Shown: piece after piece, positions 5,062 to 55,799 of the stretch
Layout of the letters: every line of letters begins with the position of its first letter
Numbering within the stretch: the first letter of the stretch is position 1
Source: an uncultured Alphaproteobacteria bacterium
GTDB taxonomy: Bacteria > Pseudomonadota > Alphaproteobacteria > HIMB59 > GCA-002718135
Length of the DNA stretch: 64,000 nt
Assembly: GCA_902595425.1 (NCBI GenBank)
Contig: CACJPV010000003.1
Location: forward strand, 78,401 to 142,400
Direction: 5' to 3'
Program-made: the position numbers and the translations under genes
The notes under the pieces: model-generated
Database searches by the model: none
What the model saw: only the letters and a program-made list of their open reading frames with translations
Told to the model about the DNA's origin: nothing

Positions 5062-5697
5062 TTGTCTAAATATTTAATTTTAAAAAATAATTCAAATCAG
5101 ACTCTGGTTTATTATCCTGTTCCCAAAAACGCAAATACATCTGCAAAACTCTTCATTGCAAAACATTTAAAAATAGATGATCGCTTTATATTCATTGGCG
5201 ATAAGATACCTAGGTATTTACAAAAAAGAGAGGATCTGCAGTCAAAGGAATCTATAGTGAGGTTTTTGCCCTCTAAGCAAAAATTTAAAAAAGTAAATGC
5301 TGACTTTAAATGTTGTATTGTTAGGAATCCAATTAAAAGATTTCTATCAGCATATAAAAATAGAATATTGTATCACAAAGATAAATTATTTTATAATCAT
5401 TCTATAGATCAAATACTAGAAAAGTTAGCGCAAAGAAGTTTTGAAAATCCACATTTTCTCCCTCAAGTATATTTCCTTGGAAATGACATTGAATATTATA
5501 ATTTTTATTGTGACGTTGATGAAATTAATAAATTTGAAATATTTATAAATAATTTTTTTAATCAAAAAATTAATTTTCCAAAAATTCAAACTGGCTCAAC
5601 AAAAGACGATATAATTTTAACAAAAAAACAAATTAAACAATTAGAGGAAATTTATGAAGAAGATTTTAGGTTAGTCTCTTCATTAAAAAATAATTAG
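5062..5697 (+). CDS. Sulfotransferase family 2 protein
   Basis: PKNANTS (5'-PSB loop), VRNPIKRFLSAY (3'-PB) and HFLPQ motifs; TTG start. Confidence 0.8.
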   Translation: MSKYLILKNNSNQTLVYYPVPKNANTSAKLFIAKHLKIDDRFIFIGDKIPRYLQKREDLQSKESIVRFLPSKQKFKKVNADFKCCIVRNPIKRFLSAYKNRILYHKDKLFYNHSIDQILEKLAQRSFENPHFLPQVYFLGNDIEYYNFYCDVDEINKFEIFINNFFNQKINFPKIQTGSTKDDIILTKKQIKQLEEIYEEDFRLVSSLKNN

Positions 5698-5766
5698 ATA
5701 CACAATTTGTGGTCACCTTTAAGATTGTTACTATTAATTTTTTTGATTTAATGTATTTATTTTTGT

Positions 5767-6465
5767 ATGAAAAAAGTTGCTGCCTTTATTGCTTCAGGAA
5801 CTGGAATTGGTGCTGGTGCGGCAATACATTTATCCTCTAAAGGTTATCAAATAGCTATAATGTCTTCATCAGGCAAAGGACAAGAACTAGCAAAACAATT
5901 AAATGGATTAGGTTATACAGGTTCTAATTTAGTTAGAGAAAATATTGAAGATTTTTTTCAAAAAATTTTAGATCGATATGGAAGAATCGATGTTTTGATT
6001 AACAGTGCCGGTCATGGGCCTAAAGGGGATATTTTAAATTTAAAAGATGAAGATTGGCAAAAAGGAATGGAGGTTTATCTATTAAATGTCATAAGAGCAT
6101 CTAGAATTGTAACTCCATTAATGCAAAAACAAAAAAATGGCTCAATTATAAATATTTCTACTTTTGCAACTTTTGAACCTGATGAAAATTTTCCAACATC
6201 AAGTGTTTTTAGAGCCGGTTTAGCTTCATTTGCAAAACTTTATGCTAAAAAATACGCAAAGGATAATATTAGAATGAATAATATTTTGCCTGGATTTATC
6301 GACAGCTTACCTGAAAAAGCAGAATTCCTAGAGCGCATTCCTCTTAAACGGTATGGCAAGGTAAGTGAAATTTCAACCGTTATTGAAATGTTAGCTTCTG
6401 ATGGTGGTGCTTATATTACTGGACAGAATATACGTGTTGATGGTGGAATCACACACTCTGTCTAG
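5767..6465 (+). CDS. Short-chain dehydrogenase/reductase (SDR)
   Basis: GTGIG nucleotide-binding loop, INSAG, NNILPG, ITGQNIRVDGG. Confidence 0.9.
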   Translation: MKKVAAFIASGTGIGAGAAIHLSSKGYQIAIMSSSGKGQELAKQLNGLGYTGSNLVRENIEDFFQKILDRYGRIDVLINSAGHGPKGDILNLKDEDWQKGMEVYLLNVIRASRIVTPLMQKQKNGSIINISTFATFEPDENFPTSSVFRAGLASFAKLYAKKYAKDNIRMNNILPGFIDSLPEKAEFLERIPLKRYGKVSEISTVIEMLASDGGAYITGQNIRVDGGITHSV

Positions 6466-6474
6466 ATAATAAAA

Positions 6475-7269
6475 ATGAATAAACTTAGTTATAAAAAAAT
6501 ATTATCAAAAAAAAACAAAATGCCAATTACTTGCTTAACTGCTTACTCAAAACCAATTGCAAAAATATTAGATGGAGAAGTTGATTTAATACTTATTGGA
6601 GACTCACTTGGTACAACTGTTTACGGAATGAAAAACACAAGAGGTGTTACACTTGATATGATGAAAAATCATGGAAGGGCTGTAGTAAAAAATACAAAAT
6701 TCTCAATGACTGTCGTTGATATGCCATACAACACTTATCGAAATAAAAAAGAAGCTTTAAACAATGCTAATATATTGATTAATTTCACAAAAGCTAATTT
6801 TGTAAAAATTGAAACAGATAATAAAACAATCGATATAGTAAAATATTTAACAGATAATAAAATTAATGTTGTTTCTCATATAGGAGTAACCCCTCAACAG
6901 TTCGTGAATTTTAAAAAGATTAAAAGTGTTGGTAAACAAAATGAAGATAGAAAAAAACTACTAGAATTAGCAACTCAACTTGAGCAAGCAGGTTCGAAAC
7001 TCATTGTGCTAGAATGTATAAATCAATTAACAGCAAAAAAAATAACAAATATATTATCAATTCCAACAATTGGAATTGGCTCCTCTAAACATTGTGATGG
7101 ACAAGTTTTAGTCATTGATGATATTTTAAATTTTAATTCAGATATTAAAAAACCAAAATTTGTAAAAAACTTTACTAATATTGAAGAAAATATCTCTAAA
7201 GCTGTAAAAAAATTTGCTATAACTGTTAAAAATAAAAAATTTCCACAGCAAAAACACTCTTATAAATAA
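6475..7269 (+). CDS. panB: 3-methyl-2-oxobutanoate hydroxymethyltransferase
   Basis: CLTAY, LIGDSLG, VVDMPY, HIGVTPQ, PTIGIG..CDGQVLV. Confidence 0.95.
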   Translation: MNKLSYKKILSKKNKMPITCLTAYSKPIAKILDGEVDLILIGDSLGTTVYGMKNTRGVTLDMMKNHGRAVVKNTKFSMTVVDMPYNTYRNKKEALNNANILINFTKANFVKIETDNKTIDIVKYLTDNKINVVSHIGVTPQQFVNFKKIKSVGKQNEDRKKLLELATQLEQAGSKLIVLECINQLTAKKITNILSIPTIGIGSSKHCDGQVLVIDDILNFNSDIKKPKFVKNFTNIEENISKAVKKFAITVKNKKFPQQKHSYK

Positions 7270-7285
7270 TTAATTTTCAATTTAT

Positions 7286-7906
7286 TTAAATTTTTAATGA
7301 TTTTATATCCCCTGAACTAATATTATATATTAAACCATAAATAGAAAGTTTTTTATTTTTTACCATTTTTTTCACTATTGGAAATTCTAACAAATTATAA
7401 ACAGATACTCTAACATTTTCTTCTTCTAAAAAATTAATTTGGTTTTTCACAGATAGTGTTTTTGGAACATTTTTATATGCAGCACTGAGGTTAGCTAACC
7501 AACTATTTATAAATTTATAATTTTTGTTTGGTCCTTTTAAATAATGAGAGTAACCAGTTTTGATACCTCCACAATTTGTGTGTCCTAAAACAATAAAATT
7601 TGGCACTTTTAATACTTTTACTGCATACTCTATTGCAGCAAAAGTAGAATGATCGGTTTTTAATGATTTATATGATGGTATTATGTTTGCAATATTACGA
7701 TGTATAAAAAAATCTCCTTCTTTAGCGCCAAAAATTGAGGCAACATTAACTCTTGAATCACAGCATGAAACAATCATTGCTTTAGGTTTTTGTCCAGACT
7801 TCGCAAGTTTTTCAATTTTACTTTTATTTCGTAAATAAGAAGTGGATTTCCATGAATTATATCTTTTAATTAAAAATCTTGGCAAAAGGATTTTTTTATT
7901 TGTCAT
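7286..7906 (-). CDS. can: Beta-class carbonic anhydrase
   Basis: CCDSRV, RNIAN and GHTNCGG Zn-ligand motifs. Confidence 0.93.
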   Translation of the reverse strand: MTNKKILLPRFLIKRYNSWKSTSYLRNKSKIEKLAKSGQKPKAMIVSCCDSRVNVASIFGAKEGDFFIHRNIANIIPSYKSLKTDHSTFAAIEYAVKVLKVPNFIVLGHTNCGGIKTGYSHYLKGPNKNYKFINSWLANLSAAYKNVPKTLSVKNQINFLEEENVRVSVYNLLEFPIVKKMVKNKKLSIYGLIYNISSGDIKSLKI

Positions 7907-50956: not shown

Positions 50957-51682
50957 CTATTTCTTTTTAATTTCATTAAGAAAACTTTCTATATCTACGT
51001 TTTTTTCTTGAAGAGTATTGATAATTTTCTTTCCAATAATTCCTACAAAATGAAAAAAACTTGGATTTGGTATTTTTTTTGCATTATGCAAAAAGGGCAT
51101 ATAATTCCATTTATAATCTAGCTCTGAAAAAATTTCATTATTTTGAATTATAAATTCATTTAGTAGCATATTATCAGAATTTTTACCTTTTGCTCTTTTT
51201 TTTAGCTCTAATCTTTTAATCATATAATGATGAAGTTTTTTAGCCGTTACTCTGTCGCAAAAAGTAACACCTGAATTAAAATAGCCGTAAGAGCTGTCTA
51301 AACTGTTTACTTCCCTAAAAATATTTGATGAATTTCCCTCGGGTTCTCTAACATTCATCAAACCGCTAATTTTAGGAAGCGGTTCAGCATTTGGAAAAAT
51401 ATAGACATCATTATCTAAATAAATTGTATAATCATAATCGTTATCAAAATGAAAATATCTTTCAAAAGAGTAGTGTTTATTTTTAGAAGCTAAAAAATCA
51501 AAGTTTCCAAATTTTTTTTTATAAGTGCTTTCCTTCACTATTTTGTAGTCATACTTAAATTTTTTACAATAAGTCCTAACTGATGGTATAAAGATTTCTC
51601 TTATGGGATTAATTGTTTTGCTGTTTCCCCATTGGGTGCCATCTCCTATATCTATTTGTATAATTAAGAAGTTAGATTTCAT
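50957..51682 (-). CDS. GT-A (nucleotide-diphospho-sugar) glycosyltransferase
   Basis: YLDNDV (DxD), FNSGV, DN.LLN, KWNY, FFHFVG; start set at ATG 51682 because the TTG at 51751 lies inside the att remnant. Confidence 0.75.
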   Translation of the reverse strand: MKSNFLIIQIDIGDGTQWGNSKTINPIREIFIPSVRTYCKKFKYDYKIVKESTYKKKFGNFDFLASKNKHYSFERYFHFDNDYDYTIYLDNDVYIFPNAEPLPKISGLMNVREPEGNSSNIFREVNSLDSSYGYFNSGVTFCDRVTAKKLHHYMIKRLELKKRAKGKNSDNMLLNEFIIQNNEIFSELDYKWNYMPFLHNAKKIPNPSFFHFVGIIGKKIINTLQEKNVDIESFLNEIKKK

Positions 51683-51740
51683 AGAGTTTTTAACTATATC
51701 ATTAATCTTCCATAATTTGAAAAATTTCAAAACAAATGGA

Positions 51741-51761
51741 AACCTTGGCAAGGTTATTCGA
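51741..51761 (-). repeat. Degenerate att remnant: tRNA-Gly anticodon arm plus ATTCGA
   Basis: AACCTTGGCAAGGTTATTCGA is identical to 51900-51920; the first 15 bp match the tRNA anticodon stem-loop. Confidence 0.8.
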
Positions 51762-51865: not shown

Positions 51866-51914
51866 TGGAGCGGGCGAAGGGATTCGAACCCTCGACTTCA
51901 ACCTTGGCAAGGTT
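51866..51914 (-). repeat. tRNA-Gly 3'-half duplication (att site, 49 bp)
   Basis: Identical to 55150-55198; lacks the D-arm and 5' acceptor strand. Confidence 0.95.
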
Positions 51915-51982
51915 ATTCGATACAAACTAACAAAGAGAATACCTTAAAAAATTATTTAAAATATTAGGAAATTATTAATCGA

Positions 51983-52001
51983 ACTTGGACGTACGTTGGA
52001 C
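51983..52001. repeat. TTGGAC direct-repeat pair, left end of element 2
   Basis: ACTTGGACGTACGTTGGAC, 18/19 identical to 52301-52319. Confidence 0.8.
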
Positions 52002-52051
52002 TTAAAAATATTAAATATATTAACATGTTGTCAGATTAATATATAAGTAAC

Positions 52052-52107
52052 TCGTCCTGATTTAGATACTCTAATTGCTGGGACAAAAAACAAAACGCTA
52101 AAGGAGA
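52052..52107 (+). promoter_or_regulatory. SAM-II-like riboswitch
   Basis: GTCC(P1)-TGATTT-...-CTCT-AA-TTGC-T-GGGAC(P1')-A-rich linker-GCTAAA-GGAG(SD)-5 nt-ATG reproduces the SAM-II pseudoknot landmarks; CTCT can pair with the SD. Confidence 0.75.
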
Positions 52108-52111
52108 CTAA

Positions 52112-52300
52112 ATGTTTAATTTTAAATATTATTTAGCTAATTCTGTTAAGGATTTTATAAAAAAAAGAGAACAGAAAGAAGGACTTAAAAATATCTTTTT
52201 TAAAAAATTAGATAAAAACTTTCTTGAACTGTCAAAAGAAGAACAAGTTCAAAGAATAGTTAAAATTTTAGAAAGTCAGGGATTTAAATTAAAGAAATAG
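52112..52300 (+). CDS. 62-aa basic orphan protein downstream of the SAM-II-like riboswitch
   Basis: Strong AAGGAG SD, ATG start, only ORF of element 2; TAG abuts the right repeat pair. Confidence 0.75.
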   Translation: MFNFKYYLANSVKDFIKKREQKEGLKNIFFKKLDKNFLELSKEEQVQRIVKILESQGFKLKK

Positions 52301-52319
52301 ACTTGGACGTATGTTGGAC
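52301..52319. repeat. TTGGAC direct-repeat pair, right end of element 2
   Basis: ACTTGGACGTATGTTGGAC, 11-bp period. Confidence 0.8.
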
Positions 52320-52344
52320 ACAAGTCATTCGTCCGCTTCAAATT

Positions 52345-52394
52345 TGGAGCGGGCGAAGGGATTCGAACCCTCGACTTCAACCTTGGCAAGGTTG
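52345..52394 (-). repeat. tRNA-Gly 3'-half duplication (att site, 50 bp)
   Basis: Identical to 55150-55199; identity ends at the base of the anticodon stem. Confidence 0.95.
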
Positions 52395-52449: not shown

Positions 52450-52472
52450 ATTTCTGTCACAACTGAGTCACA
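52450..52472. repeat. TGTCACA direct-repeat pair, left end of element 1
   Basis: ATTTCTGTCACA-ACTG-AGTCACA; matches 55058-55080. Confidence 0.8.
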
Positions 52473-53330
52473 CTAAGAATTATCTTTAATAAATTTTTTT
52501 ATGATTTGTGCTTCTTTCAAAACTAACTTCTTATCATAAATTATATAGCTTCTTTCAATATTTTGACCAGCAGCATTTGATAGCCAGTTAAAACTTCCAC
52601 AAACAACATACTCATCATCACATATGAGTATTTTAGAATGGTTTTTGTATTCTGCTAAATATATTTTTCCCTTTAATTTATGCTCTTTGGCTTGCTGAAC
52701 TAACTTTCTTAAATCATTCTCAGCATTTAATTCATATTCTTTTTTTTGTTCATTATGATGTGAACTTCTATATCCATATCCAAGATATATATTAACACCT
52801 CTTTTAAGAGCCTCAGTAAGAGAAATTTTAAAATCCTCATTAATAACATATGAAGTTGCCGTCCCTGACAAAATACAAATACTACTTGTTGCCTGTCCAA
52901 GAGTATTAAAAAAGATTTGTCTGTGTTGAGATAAATTATTTAATATTTTTAAGTTTACTTTTTTATTTGCTTGAACATAATCACTGACTTCTTTGTTATC
53001 AATTCTATTTTTATCAGATATGAAATTTTCAATAATATTTTTTTGTTGTTGAATTTTTTTGTCTTTACCATCAAGCCAATTAACTATACCGTAACAAATA
53101 GTAAATGTTAATACTGCTTCAGCTAATTGAAAAAACCAAAGCTCTGAAAAATCTCTTATCTTTACTTTCCCAAAATATACTGAAATACCAAGTGTCCAAG
53201 AAATCCAAAATAAACTTATTAAAAAACCAAATACCTTTGATAGATTAAAACTATTAAAAAAAAACTTTCCGGCACTAAAACCAAAAATAATAGTAAGAAT
53301 TATTGTTGCCTGATAAAATAATGCAGTCAT
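52473..53330 (-). CDS. Membrane-anchored phospholipase D (HKD)/Nuc-like domain protein
   Basis: About 3 N-terminal TMs, short coiled coil, single HSKILICD-x6-GSFN motif with downstream N-x-E. Confidence 0.85.
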   Translation of the reverse strand: MTALFYQATIILTIIFGFSAGKFFFNSFNLSKVFGFLISLFWISWTLGISVYFGKVKIRDFSELWFFQLAEAVLTFTICYGIVNWLDGKDKKIQQQKNIIENFISDKNRIDNKEVSDYVQANKKVNLKILNNLSQHRQIFFNTLGQATSSICILSGTATSYVINEDFKISLTEALKRGVNIYLGYGYRSSHHNEQKKEYELNAENDLRKLVQQAKEHKLKGKIYLAEYKNHSKILICDDEYVVCGSFNWLSNAAGQNIERSYIIYDKKLVLKEAQIIKKFIKDNS

Positions 53331-53373
53331 TATTAAACACTATATTATCATTTTTTTAAAACTTAAAAAAATT

Positions 53374-54222
53374 TTATACCAAAGTATTATAAGCACTTGA
53401 AAAAAGAGATTTAAGTGAATCCCTAAACCATTCATAAACTGATGTGATATTAAGCTTATTAGAATGTTTTCTTACTAAAACTGCTATTATTAACCCAAGA
53501 ATCAATCCAAGCCAGACAGGGCCTCCAACAAATGAAGATATTCCCAAAAAAGAAAATAAACTTAAAGAACCTATTTTAGTGCCTTCTAAGAATTTTTTGG
53601 AAAATTTTTTCTTATTTTTCTCTAAATGAAAATGTCTACCTAGCATAATTATTGATATAATAACTGTAATTGGGTTACCTCCAATAGCTCCTGCCATCAT
53701 TAATGAAGAAACAAGGTCTCCAAATAACTTTGCATCTTTTTTATTCCAATTAAAAACAACACCTAAGACCCCTAAAGAAGATGCAATTAATTCAGAGCCA
53801 TTTAAAGTTTGAATGTCATAAAACCAGTCTTTTGGTATAAAAAATTTATCATGCAGAAAGATAGCAGCTTTATCATAACTATCTTTACTTAATGTATAAA
53901 ATGGTAGACCAGCATGTGTGTTGAAATCTTTAAAAAATGTTTTAACAAATGCTTCTAATTCTTGTTTTCTGCTATCATCTATTTTGACATTCTTTACAGT
54001 TTCCCACATTTCAAATGGTTGGTGTCCGTCAAAAAGTCTATGTTTCCATCCACCTATATGAGTAGCATTATATGCTGCATCAACAGCTTTATCATAAACA
54101 GTTGCTGAAGATTCAGTTAAAGAGCCAAACCAATTTTCAAATTTTCTGCTAAAATCAGATGCTAATAAACTATTAACCCAAATAGAGGTTTTATTAATAA
54201 TTTCAGATTTAATGCTTTTCAT
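53374..54222 (-). CDS. Hypothetical protein with HRLFDGH motif and C-terminal Gly-rich hydrophobic helices
   Basis: 282-aa ORF from ATG 54222; DKAVDAAYNATHIGGWKHRLFDGH segment; C-terminal hydrophobic hairpins. Confidence 0.75.
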   Translation of the reverse strand: MKSIKSEIINKTSIWVNSLLASDFSRKFENWFGSLTESSATVYDKAVDAAYNATHIGGWKHRLFDGHQPFEMWETVKNVKIDDSRKQELEAFVKTFFKDFNTHAGLPFYTLSKDSYDKAAIFLHDKFFIPKDWFYDIQTLNGSELIASSLGVLGVVFNWNKKDAKLFGDLVSSLMMAGAIGGNPITVIISIIMLGRHFHLEKNKKKFSKKFLEGTKIGSLSLFSFLGISSFVGGPVWLGLILGLIIAVLVRKHSNKLNITSVYEWFRDSLKSLFSSAYNTLV

Positions 54223-54320
54223 TATAGTCCCCAAAATAAAATTGTCACAAAAACACAAAACAGTCCAATAACAATTGAAATTCCAAACATAGCATAAAGA
54301 AATCGAATTAATTCTTGCAT
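54222..54320 (-). CDS. 32-aa single-TM peptide (absent from ORF track)
   Basis: MQELIRFLYAMFGISIVIGLFCVFVTILFWGL; ATG directly follows the upstream TAA and its own TAA overlaps the next ATG (TAATG). Confidence 0.65.
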   Translation of the reverse strand: MQELIRFLYAMFGISIVIGLFCVFVTILFWGL

Positions 54321-54998
54321 TTATCTAAACTTCAATTCAATTGTTTCATCAGCAACAGCGTATCCTTCTACTTTAATAAAAACGCTGTCACCTTCAATTT
54401 TATAATATTTAATCTTACCAGGCCAAACAGTTCCTGTTAGTGCAAAGTCTTTTACTGCTAAATTTTCCCCATCATAATTAAAAATATAATAATTAGCAGT
54501 ATTCATACAAGAAGAGCCACAACTGATATTGTAAAATACATAAACAAGGTAGTTATTATCATTTAACTTTACTATTGGATTATAAGTTAAGTACTCCGAC
54601 CATAAATCTTCCCCGCGATATTTATTAAAAGGTTGATTGGATATAATATTATTATGTTTGGAATAAAATGAGCTTAGATTTATAATTTCATCGAAACTAC
54701 TGTGCAAATCTTCTTCATAGGTATAGATAAAACGTGGTTCTAATTGTTCATGTATATAATAAAAAACATAAGGATGAATTCTTTTACCATTAAAAGACAT
54801 CATATCTATGTTGGCTCCATAATCAGCTTTAATATAATTTTCTCTGTAAACAGGAATGTATTCATCTCTTAGATAATCAATTAATGTAGGAATTTTAAAT
54901 AGGAGATATACAACGACGATTAAAGTAAGTGTGTATTGAATAAATTTTAGAATGAACCAATAAAGTGAATGAAAGAAAGAGGTTATGACATTAACCAT
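54321..54998 (-). CDS. Hypothetical N-terminally anchored, probably periplasmic protein
   Basis: 225-aa ORF, N-terminal hydrophobic segment, Tyr-rich, CGSSC motif. Confidence 0.7.
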   Translation of the reverse strand: MVNVITSFFHSLYWFILKFIQYTLTLIVVVYLLFKIPTLIDYLRDEYIPVYRENYIKADYGANIDMMSFNGKRIHPYVFYYIHEQLEPRFIYTYEEDLHSSFDEIINLSSFYSKHNNIISNQPFNKYRGEDLWSEYLTYNPIVKLNDNNYLVYVFYNISCGSSCMNTANYYIFNYDGENLAVKDFALTGTVWPGKIKYYKIEGDSVFIKVEGYAVADETIELKFR

Positions 54999-55057: not shown

Positions 55058-55080
55058 ATTTCTGTCACACTGGTGTCACA
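55058..55080. repeat. TGTCACA direct-repeat pair, right end of element 1
   Basis: ATTTCTGTCACA-CTGG-TGTCACA, 11-bp period, about 70 bp from the tRNA CCA end. Confidence 0.8.
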
Positions 55081-55149
55081 ATAAGAATGTAAAATAAGAT
55101 ATTTTTGAAAAAAACTTAACAGACAAAAGAGAAGGTTTGTGGGAATACT

Positions 55150-55224
55150 TGGAGCGGGCGAAGGGATTCGAACCCTCGACTTCAACCTTGGCAAGGTTGC
55201 GCTCTACCCCTGAGCTACGCCCGC
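55150..55224 (-). tRNA. tRNA-Gly(GCC)
   Basis: GCGGGCGTAGCTCAGGGGTAGAGCGCAACCTTGCCAAGGTTGAAGTCGAGGGTTCGAATCCCTTCGCCCGCTCCA: full cloverleaf, anticodon GCC, encoded CCA. Confidence 0.98.
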
Positions 55225-55283
55225 ATTGGTTTTTGCTAGTAACATGATATAATACGAAAGTATAATAAAAAAATATCCCACTC

Positions 55284-55799
55284 ATGCTTAACTCAACTGA
55301 ATTTATTGAAATTATCAGAAAGTCAAAATATAGTTTTAAAATTCATGAGCATGCCGATTTGCATACTGTGGAAGATTCCAAGAAACTAAGAGGTGAGATT
55401 AAGGGCGCGCATACAAAAAATTTATTTTTAAAAAATAAAAAAAATAATTTTTTTTTAATTTCCTGTGAAGAAAACAGTGAAATAAATTTGAGAAAAATAT
55501 CTAAATCACTAAATCTAGGCAATGTCTCTTTTGCAAAAACAGAATATCTTGATAGTTATTTAGGAATTAAGCCTGGGTCTGTTTCTCCTTTTGCATTATT
55601 AAATGATAATAAACAGTTTGTTAGTTTTTTTTTGGAAGATAAATTGTATGAATCGGAAATTTTAAATTTTCATCCTCTTGTTAACTCAATAACAATTTCG
55701 ATACCTGCAAATGATTTTATTAGTTTTATGATTGAAAATAATAAAAAAATACATATCTTTTCTAATACAAATTATGAGATTATAAAAACTTATGAATAG
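55284..55799 (+). CDS. YbaK/ProXp-ala aminoacyl-tRNA editing protein
   Basis: H....TVEDS, KNLFLKNKK, LG..PGSVSPFALLND, NFHPL.N. Confidence 0.9.
   Translation: MLNSTEFIEIIRKSKYSFKIHEHADLHTVEDSKKLRGEIKGAHTKNLFLKNKKNNFFLISCEENSEINLRKISKSLNLGNVSFAKTEYLDSYLGIKPGSVSPFALLNDNKQFVSFFLEDKLYESEILNFHPLVNSITISIPANDFISFMIENNKKIHIFSNTNYEIIKTYE

Follow-up and report, generated by a model that had tools for sequence, protein, structure and literature searches.

Within the phospholipase D (PLD) superfamily the lipid synthases carry two HKD motifs, and the Nuc/NucT and Zucchini/PLD6 enzymes act as homodimers, with Zucchini being anchored in the membrane via an N-terminal helix. PLD proteins are also part of the Mokosh defence systems, type I of which combines the helicase MkoA with the PLD protein MkoB and type II of which consists of the fused protein MkoC. 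The Mokosh preprint describes an RNA helicase together with a PLD-domain protein, related to PLD6 of the PIWI-interacting RNA (piRNA) pathway (bioRxiv 10.1101/2022.12.12.520048). A second point of comparison is provided by the tycheposons of marine picocyanobacteria (Prochlorococcus), which according to their description are located at tRNA genes, have full and partial tRNA copies as flanks, carry integrases as well as defence or nutrient adaptation cargo, and are pushed inward by successive integration (bioRxiv 10.1101/2020.12.28.424599). A Pelagibacter preprint reports hypervariable regions anchored at tRNA genes as well as small islands whose cargo serves defence and metabolism. Here these systems are compared with a cassette of four genes (A, B, C, and D) located at a tRNA-Gly gene in a 64,000-nucleotide stretch of an alphaproteobacterial contig (CACJPV010000003.1, positions 78,401 to 142,400; hereafter called the window). 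The cassette is real, intact, conserved, and mobile, and with a probability of about 0.45 we propose that it constitutes anti-phage or anti-mobile-element defence or exclusion cargo, which would be built around a membrane pair of proteins C and D with A and B as accessories of C.

According to the list of open reading frames (ORFs) the four genes are co-oriented on the minus strand between positions 52473 and 54998, where an earlier note made from the letters of the window had placed them, and they lie in DNA with a G+C content of about 27%. The translational coupling that this note had claimed for the first three genes was recovered, as the stop codon of A (TAA) abuts the start codon of B (ATG) and the stop codon of B (TAA) overlaps the start codon of C as TAATG. 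Its claims of a membrane association of the genes and of a tRNA-anchored island were likewise supported, the former by hydrophobic helices and hairpins and the latter by a tRNA-Gly(GCC) gene with copies of its 3' end (Table 1). Between the window and a 99% identical contig (L014; L numbers denote the loci or contigs compared and G numbers the genomes, with G000 being the window's own assembly) 19 of 2021 bases differ, and 12 of the 16 coding differences, including all five in D, are synonymous. The ratio of nonsynonymous to synonymous substitution rates (dN/dS) of C was 0.08-0.19 against three relatives, with dS near saturation. Judged from these substitutions, selection on the cassette genes is purifying. 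The 83 database relatives of C, the 102 of D, the dN/dS values of C, and the excess of synonymous differences to L014 together indicate that the genes are more than chance ORFs.

The cassette occupies one slot in a tandem array. Two further places carry a repeat of the 49-nt 3' part of the tRNA-Gly(GCC) gene (copies 1 and 2 in Table 1), a short motif (M1) stands about 70 nt after the tRNA, and its repeat partner (M1') stands about 55 nt before the tRNA copy that closes the slot. The M1-type pattern has two matches in the 1.49-Mb assembly, one per cassette end, and the motif of the second slot (M2) occurs only twice in the assembly; among 105 genomes of the genus, M1 was present in nine and M1' in three. 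The left flank is 92% identical to that of G038 (86 nt) and 87% identical to that of G094, with the likeness ending right after M1, and at the right junction of G038 M1' is 96% identical over 27 nt and continues into the tRNA copy. Between these same junctions G038 carries a Cas4-like PD-(D/E)XK nuclease, McrC, and McrB, with an islet of a methylase and a specificity subunit between the tRNA and that slot, and the array of G094 carries a DEDDh exonuclease and an MrcB_N/NOV_C protein. The tRNA-Gly query was matched in all 61 genus genomes searched, and in many genomes of the genus (e.g. G012, G094, G080, G086, G038, G023, and G024) the full tRNA-Gly gene is accompanied by one to three further copies of about 50 nt within a few kb. 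The tRNA-Gly gene is a genus-wide hotspot of tandem integrase-less slots, each with a tRNA 3' copy and a slot-specific short repeat pair.

When the locus was assessed as a tRNA island, a tRNA and a direct repeat of its 3' part were present and an own integrase or recombinase was not found. No integrase was detected among the ORFs of the array, and the tyrosine recombinase model PF00589, with serine recombinases outside the search, had no match in the assembly (84% complete), all control genomes being matched. The layout of a tRNA core, a conserved arm with a tandem TGTGAC motif, the cargo, an arm, and a core copy would be the expected trace of a circular element that had integrated by means of arm-type recombinase sites. 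The replacement of cargo would also be explicable by homologous recombination between the conserved flanks. Part of a 3.8-kb stretch was found in 20 of the 24 listed public runs (12 studies, marine or seawater labels). In two DNA runs from different studies the cassette is covered by contigs of about 99% identity, which end at 52474-52477, the boundary formed by the stop codon of D and M1'. One DNA contig joins 52472 to 55104 without the cassette and with 22 other letters in between; its shorter side is 22 nt, its ends lie in repeats, and it was not counted as an empty site. Two short contigs from an RNA library, in which DNA carry-over is possible, map to C (53580-53747, no mismatch) and A (54746-54897, three mismatches).

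Protein D contains HSKILICDDEYVVCGSFN, which corresponds to HxK-x4-D-x6-GSxN, the catalytic motif of the PLD superfamily. This intact single HKD motif, already recognized in the earlier note, was invariant (H231, K233, D238, G245, S246, and N248) in an alignment of 19 D-family sequences. D matched the Pfam models PLDc_2 (5.2e-12, 46.2 bits, cut-off 27) and PLDc (22.2 bits, cut-off 21.9), and its best matches overall were the PADLOC Mokosh models MkoB (2.5e-24) and MkoC (1.4e-18), with the PADLOC DrmC model at 6e-7; the D relatives in L006 and L019 also matched the Mokosh PLD models best. A profile of 19 relatives matched solved PLD structures only at E-values of 0.006-0.03, with PLD6 (4ggj), NucT (6ehi), and Nuc (1byr) at 0.0076-0.028. 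At the N-terminus two to three hydrophobic helices precede a lysine-rich linker. By these motif and profile matches D is considered an intact single-HKD enzyme of the PLD clade used in phage defence, which should dimerise into one active site as other single-HKD enzymes do and probably cuts nucleic acid at the inner membrane, being a putative nuclease rather than a lipase. In genomes of the sister family the transmembrane PLD protein and a 175-aa (amino acids) zinc-finger-rich HNH endonuclease form a two-gene unit at two different chromosomal places (L049 of G119, 6336-7699; L050 of G182, 6391-7751).

Protein C belongs to a family without a described function, the full-length members of which lack a Pfam domain. 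By source names its relatives come from SAR11-like contigs, SAR202 and other Chloroflexi, a deltaproteobacterium, and a subsurface metagenome, and by title the C loci also include the contig of a Scalindua metagenome-assembled genome, Thermodesulfovibrionales, and Bryobacterales. Across 22 aligned members the N-terminal half contains the invariant residues Y43, D44, D48, Y51, G57, H61, R62, D65, H67, D83, E88, and D99; N183-P184 at the turn of the first hairpin is invariant and G234-P235 at the turn of the second is nearly so. The hairpins have tight NP and GGP turns and K-rich loops, and the AlphaFold model is all-helical with a mean confidence (pLDDT) of 78. Since both hairpins are bordered by lysine-rich segments that lie on the side of the N-terminal domain, we infer that all soluble parts of C, including the conserved His/Asp domain, are cytoplasmic.

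Searches with C returned no match below an E-value of 0.01 in Pfam, NCBIfam, PADLOC, and PHROGs, and the 22 family members matched no Pfam family of note; in PADLOC one of the 22 matched ZorA, and none matched any other model. The model had no Foldseek match in the PDB at E <= 0.001 and none in BFVD, its best VIA-wide match (Z 6.6) was within the usual range for helical models, and the sequence profile had no PDB match below an E-value of 0.95. In the ESM Atlas the whole protein reached at most 0.86, with unnamed clusters on top, and residues 1-150 gave no usable match to named clusters. As further observations on this family, the C domain of L011 (Bryobacterales, 5164-6861) stands behind an Ala/Ser-rich N-terminal extension of about 280 aa (565 aa in total) and directly upstream of the Wadjet genes jetA and jetB, and in two IMG/VR viral contigs (L012 and L013) a distant relative of C (27% identity) lies beside a T4-type RNA ligase, a RecD2-like helicase, and an RlaP-family protein as a conserved block.

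The family of A is narrow: a word search gave 15 relatives, and a search of 1.84 billion proteins gave 13 representatives at E <= 0.001. Its model (pLDDT 79) comprises a long N-terminal helix and a beta-rich C-terminal domain; the best Foldseek match had an E-value of 0.061, and resemblances to NTF2, VirB8, cystatin, and a beta-propeller blade were weak (Z 4-5.5). The models of A and C match no solved fold, and A, B, and C match no Pfam, NCBIfam, or PHROG family. The fold and family searches thus lent no support to the earlier description of C as 'pore-like' and of A as 'envelope-sensing'. The CGSSC of A is present in the sequence as had been stated, and it was rejected as a functional motif since it is not conserved in the A family.

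The genomic context of C was surveyed in 43 loci, drawn in part from a locus search with a 9-sequence alignment of C (the window, G111, seven genome contigs, two viral contigs, and 32 metagenome contigs), many of which span only 1-3 kb. For 19 loci with usable flanks, 118 ORFs of at least 90 aa within 5 kb of C were compared with the PADLOC models. The matched neighbours of C included JetA (2.8e-212) and JetB (6.1e-82) of Wadjet in L011, an HNH protein matching a type IV methyl-directed restriction endonuclease model (6.2e-24) in L014, PDC-S01 (9.4e-96) in L028, a helicase-nuclease of the REase_MTase_IIG type (1e-88) in L036, an HNH protein in L041, and weak NsnC/PtuB-like HNH matches in L005; the scan also returned the D-like PLD proteins. 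An integrase was found near C in L045 and L007 (the 375-aa ORF of L007 clusters with that of L045), and L007 further contains an excisionase-type helix-turn-helix protein (Pfam). As a control 126 ORFs from 14 random 10-kb windows were searched, which gave only generic cross-hits (ABC ATPases, helicases, cysteine desulfurase, and protease).

D-like PLD genes adjoin C in six loci (five independent). In the window D is located downstream of C; in L006 (the contig also present in G151), L019, L020, and L021 it lies upstream of C at a distance of 1-14 nt. Among the D proteins that neighbour C, three lineages can be distinguished, namely the window type, that of L006/L019/L020, and that of L021. They share only 31-37% identity with one another, and the C proteins of the L006/L019/L020 and L021 groups are 79-94% identical to each other. 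The presence of divergent PLD proteins of one family each beside C indicates a repeated arrival next to C, which is the best evidence for a functional link between the two. A prediction of the C-D complex, run without controls, scored 0.00 against a mark of 0.32 and has no bearing on whether the two bind.

A-like genes adjoin C in seven loci (six independent), including L024 and L042; L042 has two copies in tandem, and in L015 and L025 the copies are on the opposite strand. B was found only in the window, L014, and G111, where a 32-aa ORF at the same position is 59% identical to it. In G111, which belongs to another genus, the A-B-C trio lies beside a tRNA-Thr gene with a partial tRNA copy on the far side and a different fourth gene. 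A 106-aa three-helix membrane protein directly follows C in seven loci (L024, L031, L032, L034, L036, L038, and L041) and may be found with C more commonly than A, B, or D are. In two loci C is preceded by a 185-aa protein.

In the mechanism proposed on this basis the host would be an AT-rich marine, SAR11-like bacterium, and the four genes would be the cargo of an integrase-less exchangeable cassette in its tRNA-Gly tandem array. D would act as a dimeric, membrane-tethered single-HKD enzyme of the Mokosh PLD clade that cuts nucleic acid at the inner membrane. C, anchored by its two hairpins, would be the partner of D, either as a regulator or sensor or as a second, membrane-perturbing effector, and A (bitopic and beta-rich) and B (a 32-aa helix) would be lineage-specific accessory subunits of C. 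In this scheme we infer the dimerisation, substrate, and topology of D, its contact with C, and the defence function itself. The reading is favoured by the Mokosh-type match of D with its invariant HKD residues, the three D lineages beside C, the recurrence of A-B-C and A-C at other loci, the defence-type neighbours of C, the restriction and nuclease cargo in the arrays of G038 and G094, the HNH partners and the rarity of D, and purifying selection.

Several observations weigh against a defence function of a C-D pair. A, B, and C match no PADLOC-DB 2.0 model at E-values up to 1. A dedicated defence gene was present in 5 of the 19 C loci and in none of the 14 random control windows of the same genome; this speaks for the defence reading, but the contrast is weak, no more than suggestive, and based on a subjective sorting of the PADLOC matches. 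The positive-inside count of D is ambiguous, so that D may also be a periplasmic nuclease or a lipase. In six relatives (G021, G020, G064, G003, G099, and G017) the tRNA and M1 are followed by an alternative oxidase (AOX), an ABM-domain protein, and a flavodoxin-like protein; an M1-like motif closes this AOX cargo in G021, G020, G064, and G003, with a tRNA 3' copy within about 80 nt in three of these. Other slots hold a sulfotransferase and small secreted proteins. Given the metabolic cargo at the same slot in six relatives, the array serves as a general site of exchange for flexible genes, defence genes among them, and is no dedicated defence island. The earlier suggestion of an anti-phage module is therefore retained in part: it is favoured by the position of D in a defence PLD clade and by the C relatives that neighbour Wadjet genes, restriction genes of types IV and IIG, PDC-S01, and integrases, and opposed by the metabolic use of the slot.

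The linkage of C and D is also incomplete. C has no D neighbour in 37 of the 43 loci (many on contigs of only 1-3 kb), C and D are separated by 43 nt in the window and are not coupled, and the complete set of four was found in the window and L014 alone, so that the four genes do not form a conserved unit. It is thus possible, though somewhat unlikely, that two independent modules share the slot, with D being a stand-alone PLD nuclease or half of a PLD and HNH pair without its HNH protein, and with A-B-C forming a separate membrane module. With D as query, the gene is carried by 1 of 116 family genomes and by 4 of 187 order genomes; it lies beside C in two of these four (G000 and G151), and in the other two (G119 and G182) C is missing and the 175-aa HNH protein is found instead. 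HNH nucleases are the other recurrent partner of D (G119, G182, and L014): L014 diverges from the window exactly after the stop codon of D and continues with the HNH protein matching the type IV restriction model, which is missing in the window. The L021-type D, which adjoins C, shares 64-65% identity with the D proteins that are paired with HNH in G119 and G182, and this closeness indicates that the link between C and D is not obligatory. The coupling of A, B, and C as opposed to the C-D gap, the different fourth gene of G111, and the C loci with the 106-aa or 185-aa protein and without a PLD gene agree with separate modules as well. What argues against them is that each of the three divergent D lineages adjoins C and that the gaps of 1-14 nt in four loci suggest co-translation.

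The cassette might instead carry non-defence adaptive cargo, with D as an outward-facing phosphodiesterase or phospholipase for phosphate scavenging or lipid remodelling and A-C as its envelope partners. The metabolic and secreted-protein cargo in the arrays of relatives, the charge-ambiguous topology of D, and the fact that D is the only PLDc_2 match in the assembly are compatible with such a role. It is nevertheless clearly unlikely, given that the matches of D to the Mokosh PLD models reach 1e-18 to 1e-24 and the one to ClsB only 0.026, far below the cut-off, that it carries one HKD motif where lipid synthases carry two, that its partners elsewhere are HNH nucleases, and that it is rare in the family (the single genome of 116).

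Quite improbable is a self-stabilising addiction or toxin-immunity module, in which C would be a membrane toxin acting via its Gly-rich hairpins and B or the 106-aa protein would serve as antidotes. C almost always lies beside one or more small membrane proteins that vary by lineage, the cassette is mobile and without an integrase, and faint resemblances of C to a PHROG holin/anti-holin family (E 0.2) and to a colicin-like Atlas cluster (0.79, below the usable level) point in the same direction. Against this, no family or fold match identifies C as a pore former, its invariant His/Asp soluble domain would be unexpected in a simple pore peptide, and several C loci have no candidate small partner on the contig. 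That the genes are decaying, non-functional remnants of a prophage or other element, as the missing integrase in slot and assembly (84% complete), the distant C relative in two viral contigs, and the integrase- or excisionase-like genes preceding C in L007 and L045 might suggest, is highly improbable in view of four intact frames, invariant catalytic residues, purifying selection, and the recovery of the cassette at about 99% identity from marine metagenomes of two different studies.

A bolder proposal, which we regard as rather unlikely, is that C may form the centre of a membrane immunity module with changing partners, namely a transmembrane PLD nuclease, the 106-aa protein, or A and B. C would then represent a widespread undescribed hairpin-anchored family with a cytoplasmic His/Asp domain of unrecognised fold, and in streamlined marine bacteria the module would travel as integrase-less cassettes that are exchanged in an integron-like manner via the M1/M1' arm motifs in tRNA-Gly slots.

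Few cells on Earth are as abundant as streamlined oceanic bacteria of this kind, which live under heavy phage pressure. To our knowledge very few defence systems have been recognized in them, partly because the genes of their islands match nothing. Should the defence reading centred on C and D be true, the cassette would encode a helicase-less, membrane-tethered version of a Mokosh/PLD6-type nuclease together with a member of a broadly distributed membrane family (C) that recurs, across several phyla, on mobile elements and next to restriction-type genes, and it would reside in a precisely delimited tRNA-Gly exchange slot in which defence and metabolic cargo interchange without a resident integrase. 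Even if the cassette were metabolic or inert, the architecture of the slot would describe gene-content variation in these genomes.

Table 1. Coordinates of the cassette genes and of the tRNA-Gly array in the window.
Feature	Position	Strand	Description
Gene A	54321-54998	-	225 aa; contains NISCGSSCMN; N-terminal hydrophobic helix, C-terminal beta-rich domain; narrow family
Gene B	54222-54320	-	32 aa; putative single-helix membrane peptide; start and stop coupled to A and C
Gene C	53374-54222 (from ATG)	-	282 aa; contains HIGGWKHRLFDGH; N-terminal helical domain of about 145 aa, then two Gly-rich hydrophobic hairpins; uncharacterised family
Gene D	52473-53330	-	285 aa; 2-3 N-terminal membrane helices, charged helical linker, single-HKD PLD domain
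tRNA-Gly(GCC)	55150-55224	-	ARAGORN; Rfam tRNA 70.9 bits; about 49 nt of its 3' part recur in the array as attachment sequence; directly upstream of A on the same strand
Left junction	55058-55149	-	conserved tRNA-downstream flank of about 70 nt ending in M1 GTGACACCAGTGTGACAGAAAT (55058-55079)
Motif M1' TTAGTGTGACTCAGTTGTGACAGAAAT	52450-52476	-	right cargo boundary; begins at the stop codon of D; repeat pair with M1
tRNA-Gly 3'-end partial copy 1	52345-52393	-	97% over 58 nt; closes the A-D slot
Second slot, 0.43 kb	51915-52344		own repeat pair M2 (52301-52319 / 51983-52001); 62-aa ORF on the + strand (52112-52300)
tRNA-Gly 3'-end partial copy 2	51866-51914	-	reference copy of the repeat search; weak Rfam tRNA match at 51875-51924
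tRNA repeat remnant, 21 nt	51741-51761	-	third copy; at the start of a 264-aa ORF (50957-51751)

The scan for regulatory sites was judged uninformative in this AT-rich DNA, with 34 promoter-like sites as compared to 20.6 +/- 4.2 in shuffled sequences and no terminator-like site inside the cassette. The 62-aa ORF of the second slot matched no family; the region upstream of it resembles a SAM_alpha riboswitch (52044-52122) below threshold (22.9 bits vs. a gathering score of 36; E 0.21), and a contig from an RNA library spans 52152-52369. The 264-aa ORF on the minus strand at the far end of the array had no Pfam or PADLOC match and has a 68% identical counterpart in the tRNA-Gly array of G003 (L075, 7126-7857). 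On the other side of the tRNA-Gly gene a YbaK-like gene abuts it in the window (compared region 55225-55284), and in four relatives (L067-L070) a block of four genes (491, 293, 360, and 272 aa) separates the two, so that this side varies too.

Compared with the described systems, the cassette matches none of them as judged from its sequence, in line with the earlier note, and the searches of Pfam, PADLOC, NCBIfam, and PHROG agree. The literature search, supplements aside, yielded no described system that combines a transmembrane PLD protein with a C-type protein. The PLD domain of D is of the MkoB/MkoC type and matches the PLD part of the Mokosh models only, D having 285 aa and an N-terminal membrane anchor as opposed to 610 and 1136 positions of the MkoB and MkoC models, respectively. 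No helicase ORF is present in the 50-57 kb region of the window and no MkoA match (PDLC03920) was found in the 84% complete assembly; membership in Mokosh is ruled out by the missing helicase, whether adjacent or fused. With Nuc/NucT and Zucchini/PLD6 (annotated as 'mitochondrial cardiolipin hydrolase') D shares one HKD motif per chain and a marginal profile similarity, and it differs from them in its two to three membrane helices and long linker; membership in Nuc/NucT was rejected, as the best NCBIfam model, NucT, scored 31.9 bits against a cut-off of 211 and the PDB profile matches had E-values of 0.0085-0.028. The match to DISARM DrmC, likewise a PLD-family accessory nuclease of a defence system, is weak, and this assignment was rejected (NCBIfam DrmC_I, 24.6 bits, 1.5e-5, cut-off 133) with no DrmA, DrmB, DrmD, or methylase gene nearby. 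A ClsB-type cardiolipin synthase was also rejected given the single HKD motif and a score of 13.6 bits (E 0.026) against a cut-off of 281. The array resembles tycheposons in the three tRNA-Gly 3' copies of the window and in the similar arrays across the genus, and it differs from them in that the cassette slots contain no integrase, replication, or packaging gene, that the host lineage is a different one, and that each cassette slot has its own short repeat pair (M1/M1' and M2/M2') just inside the tRNA repeats.

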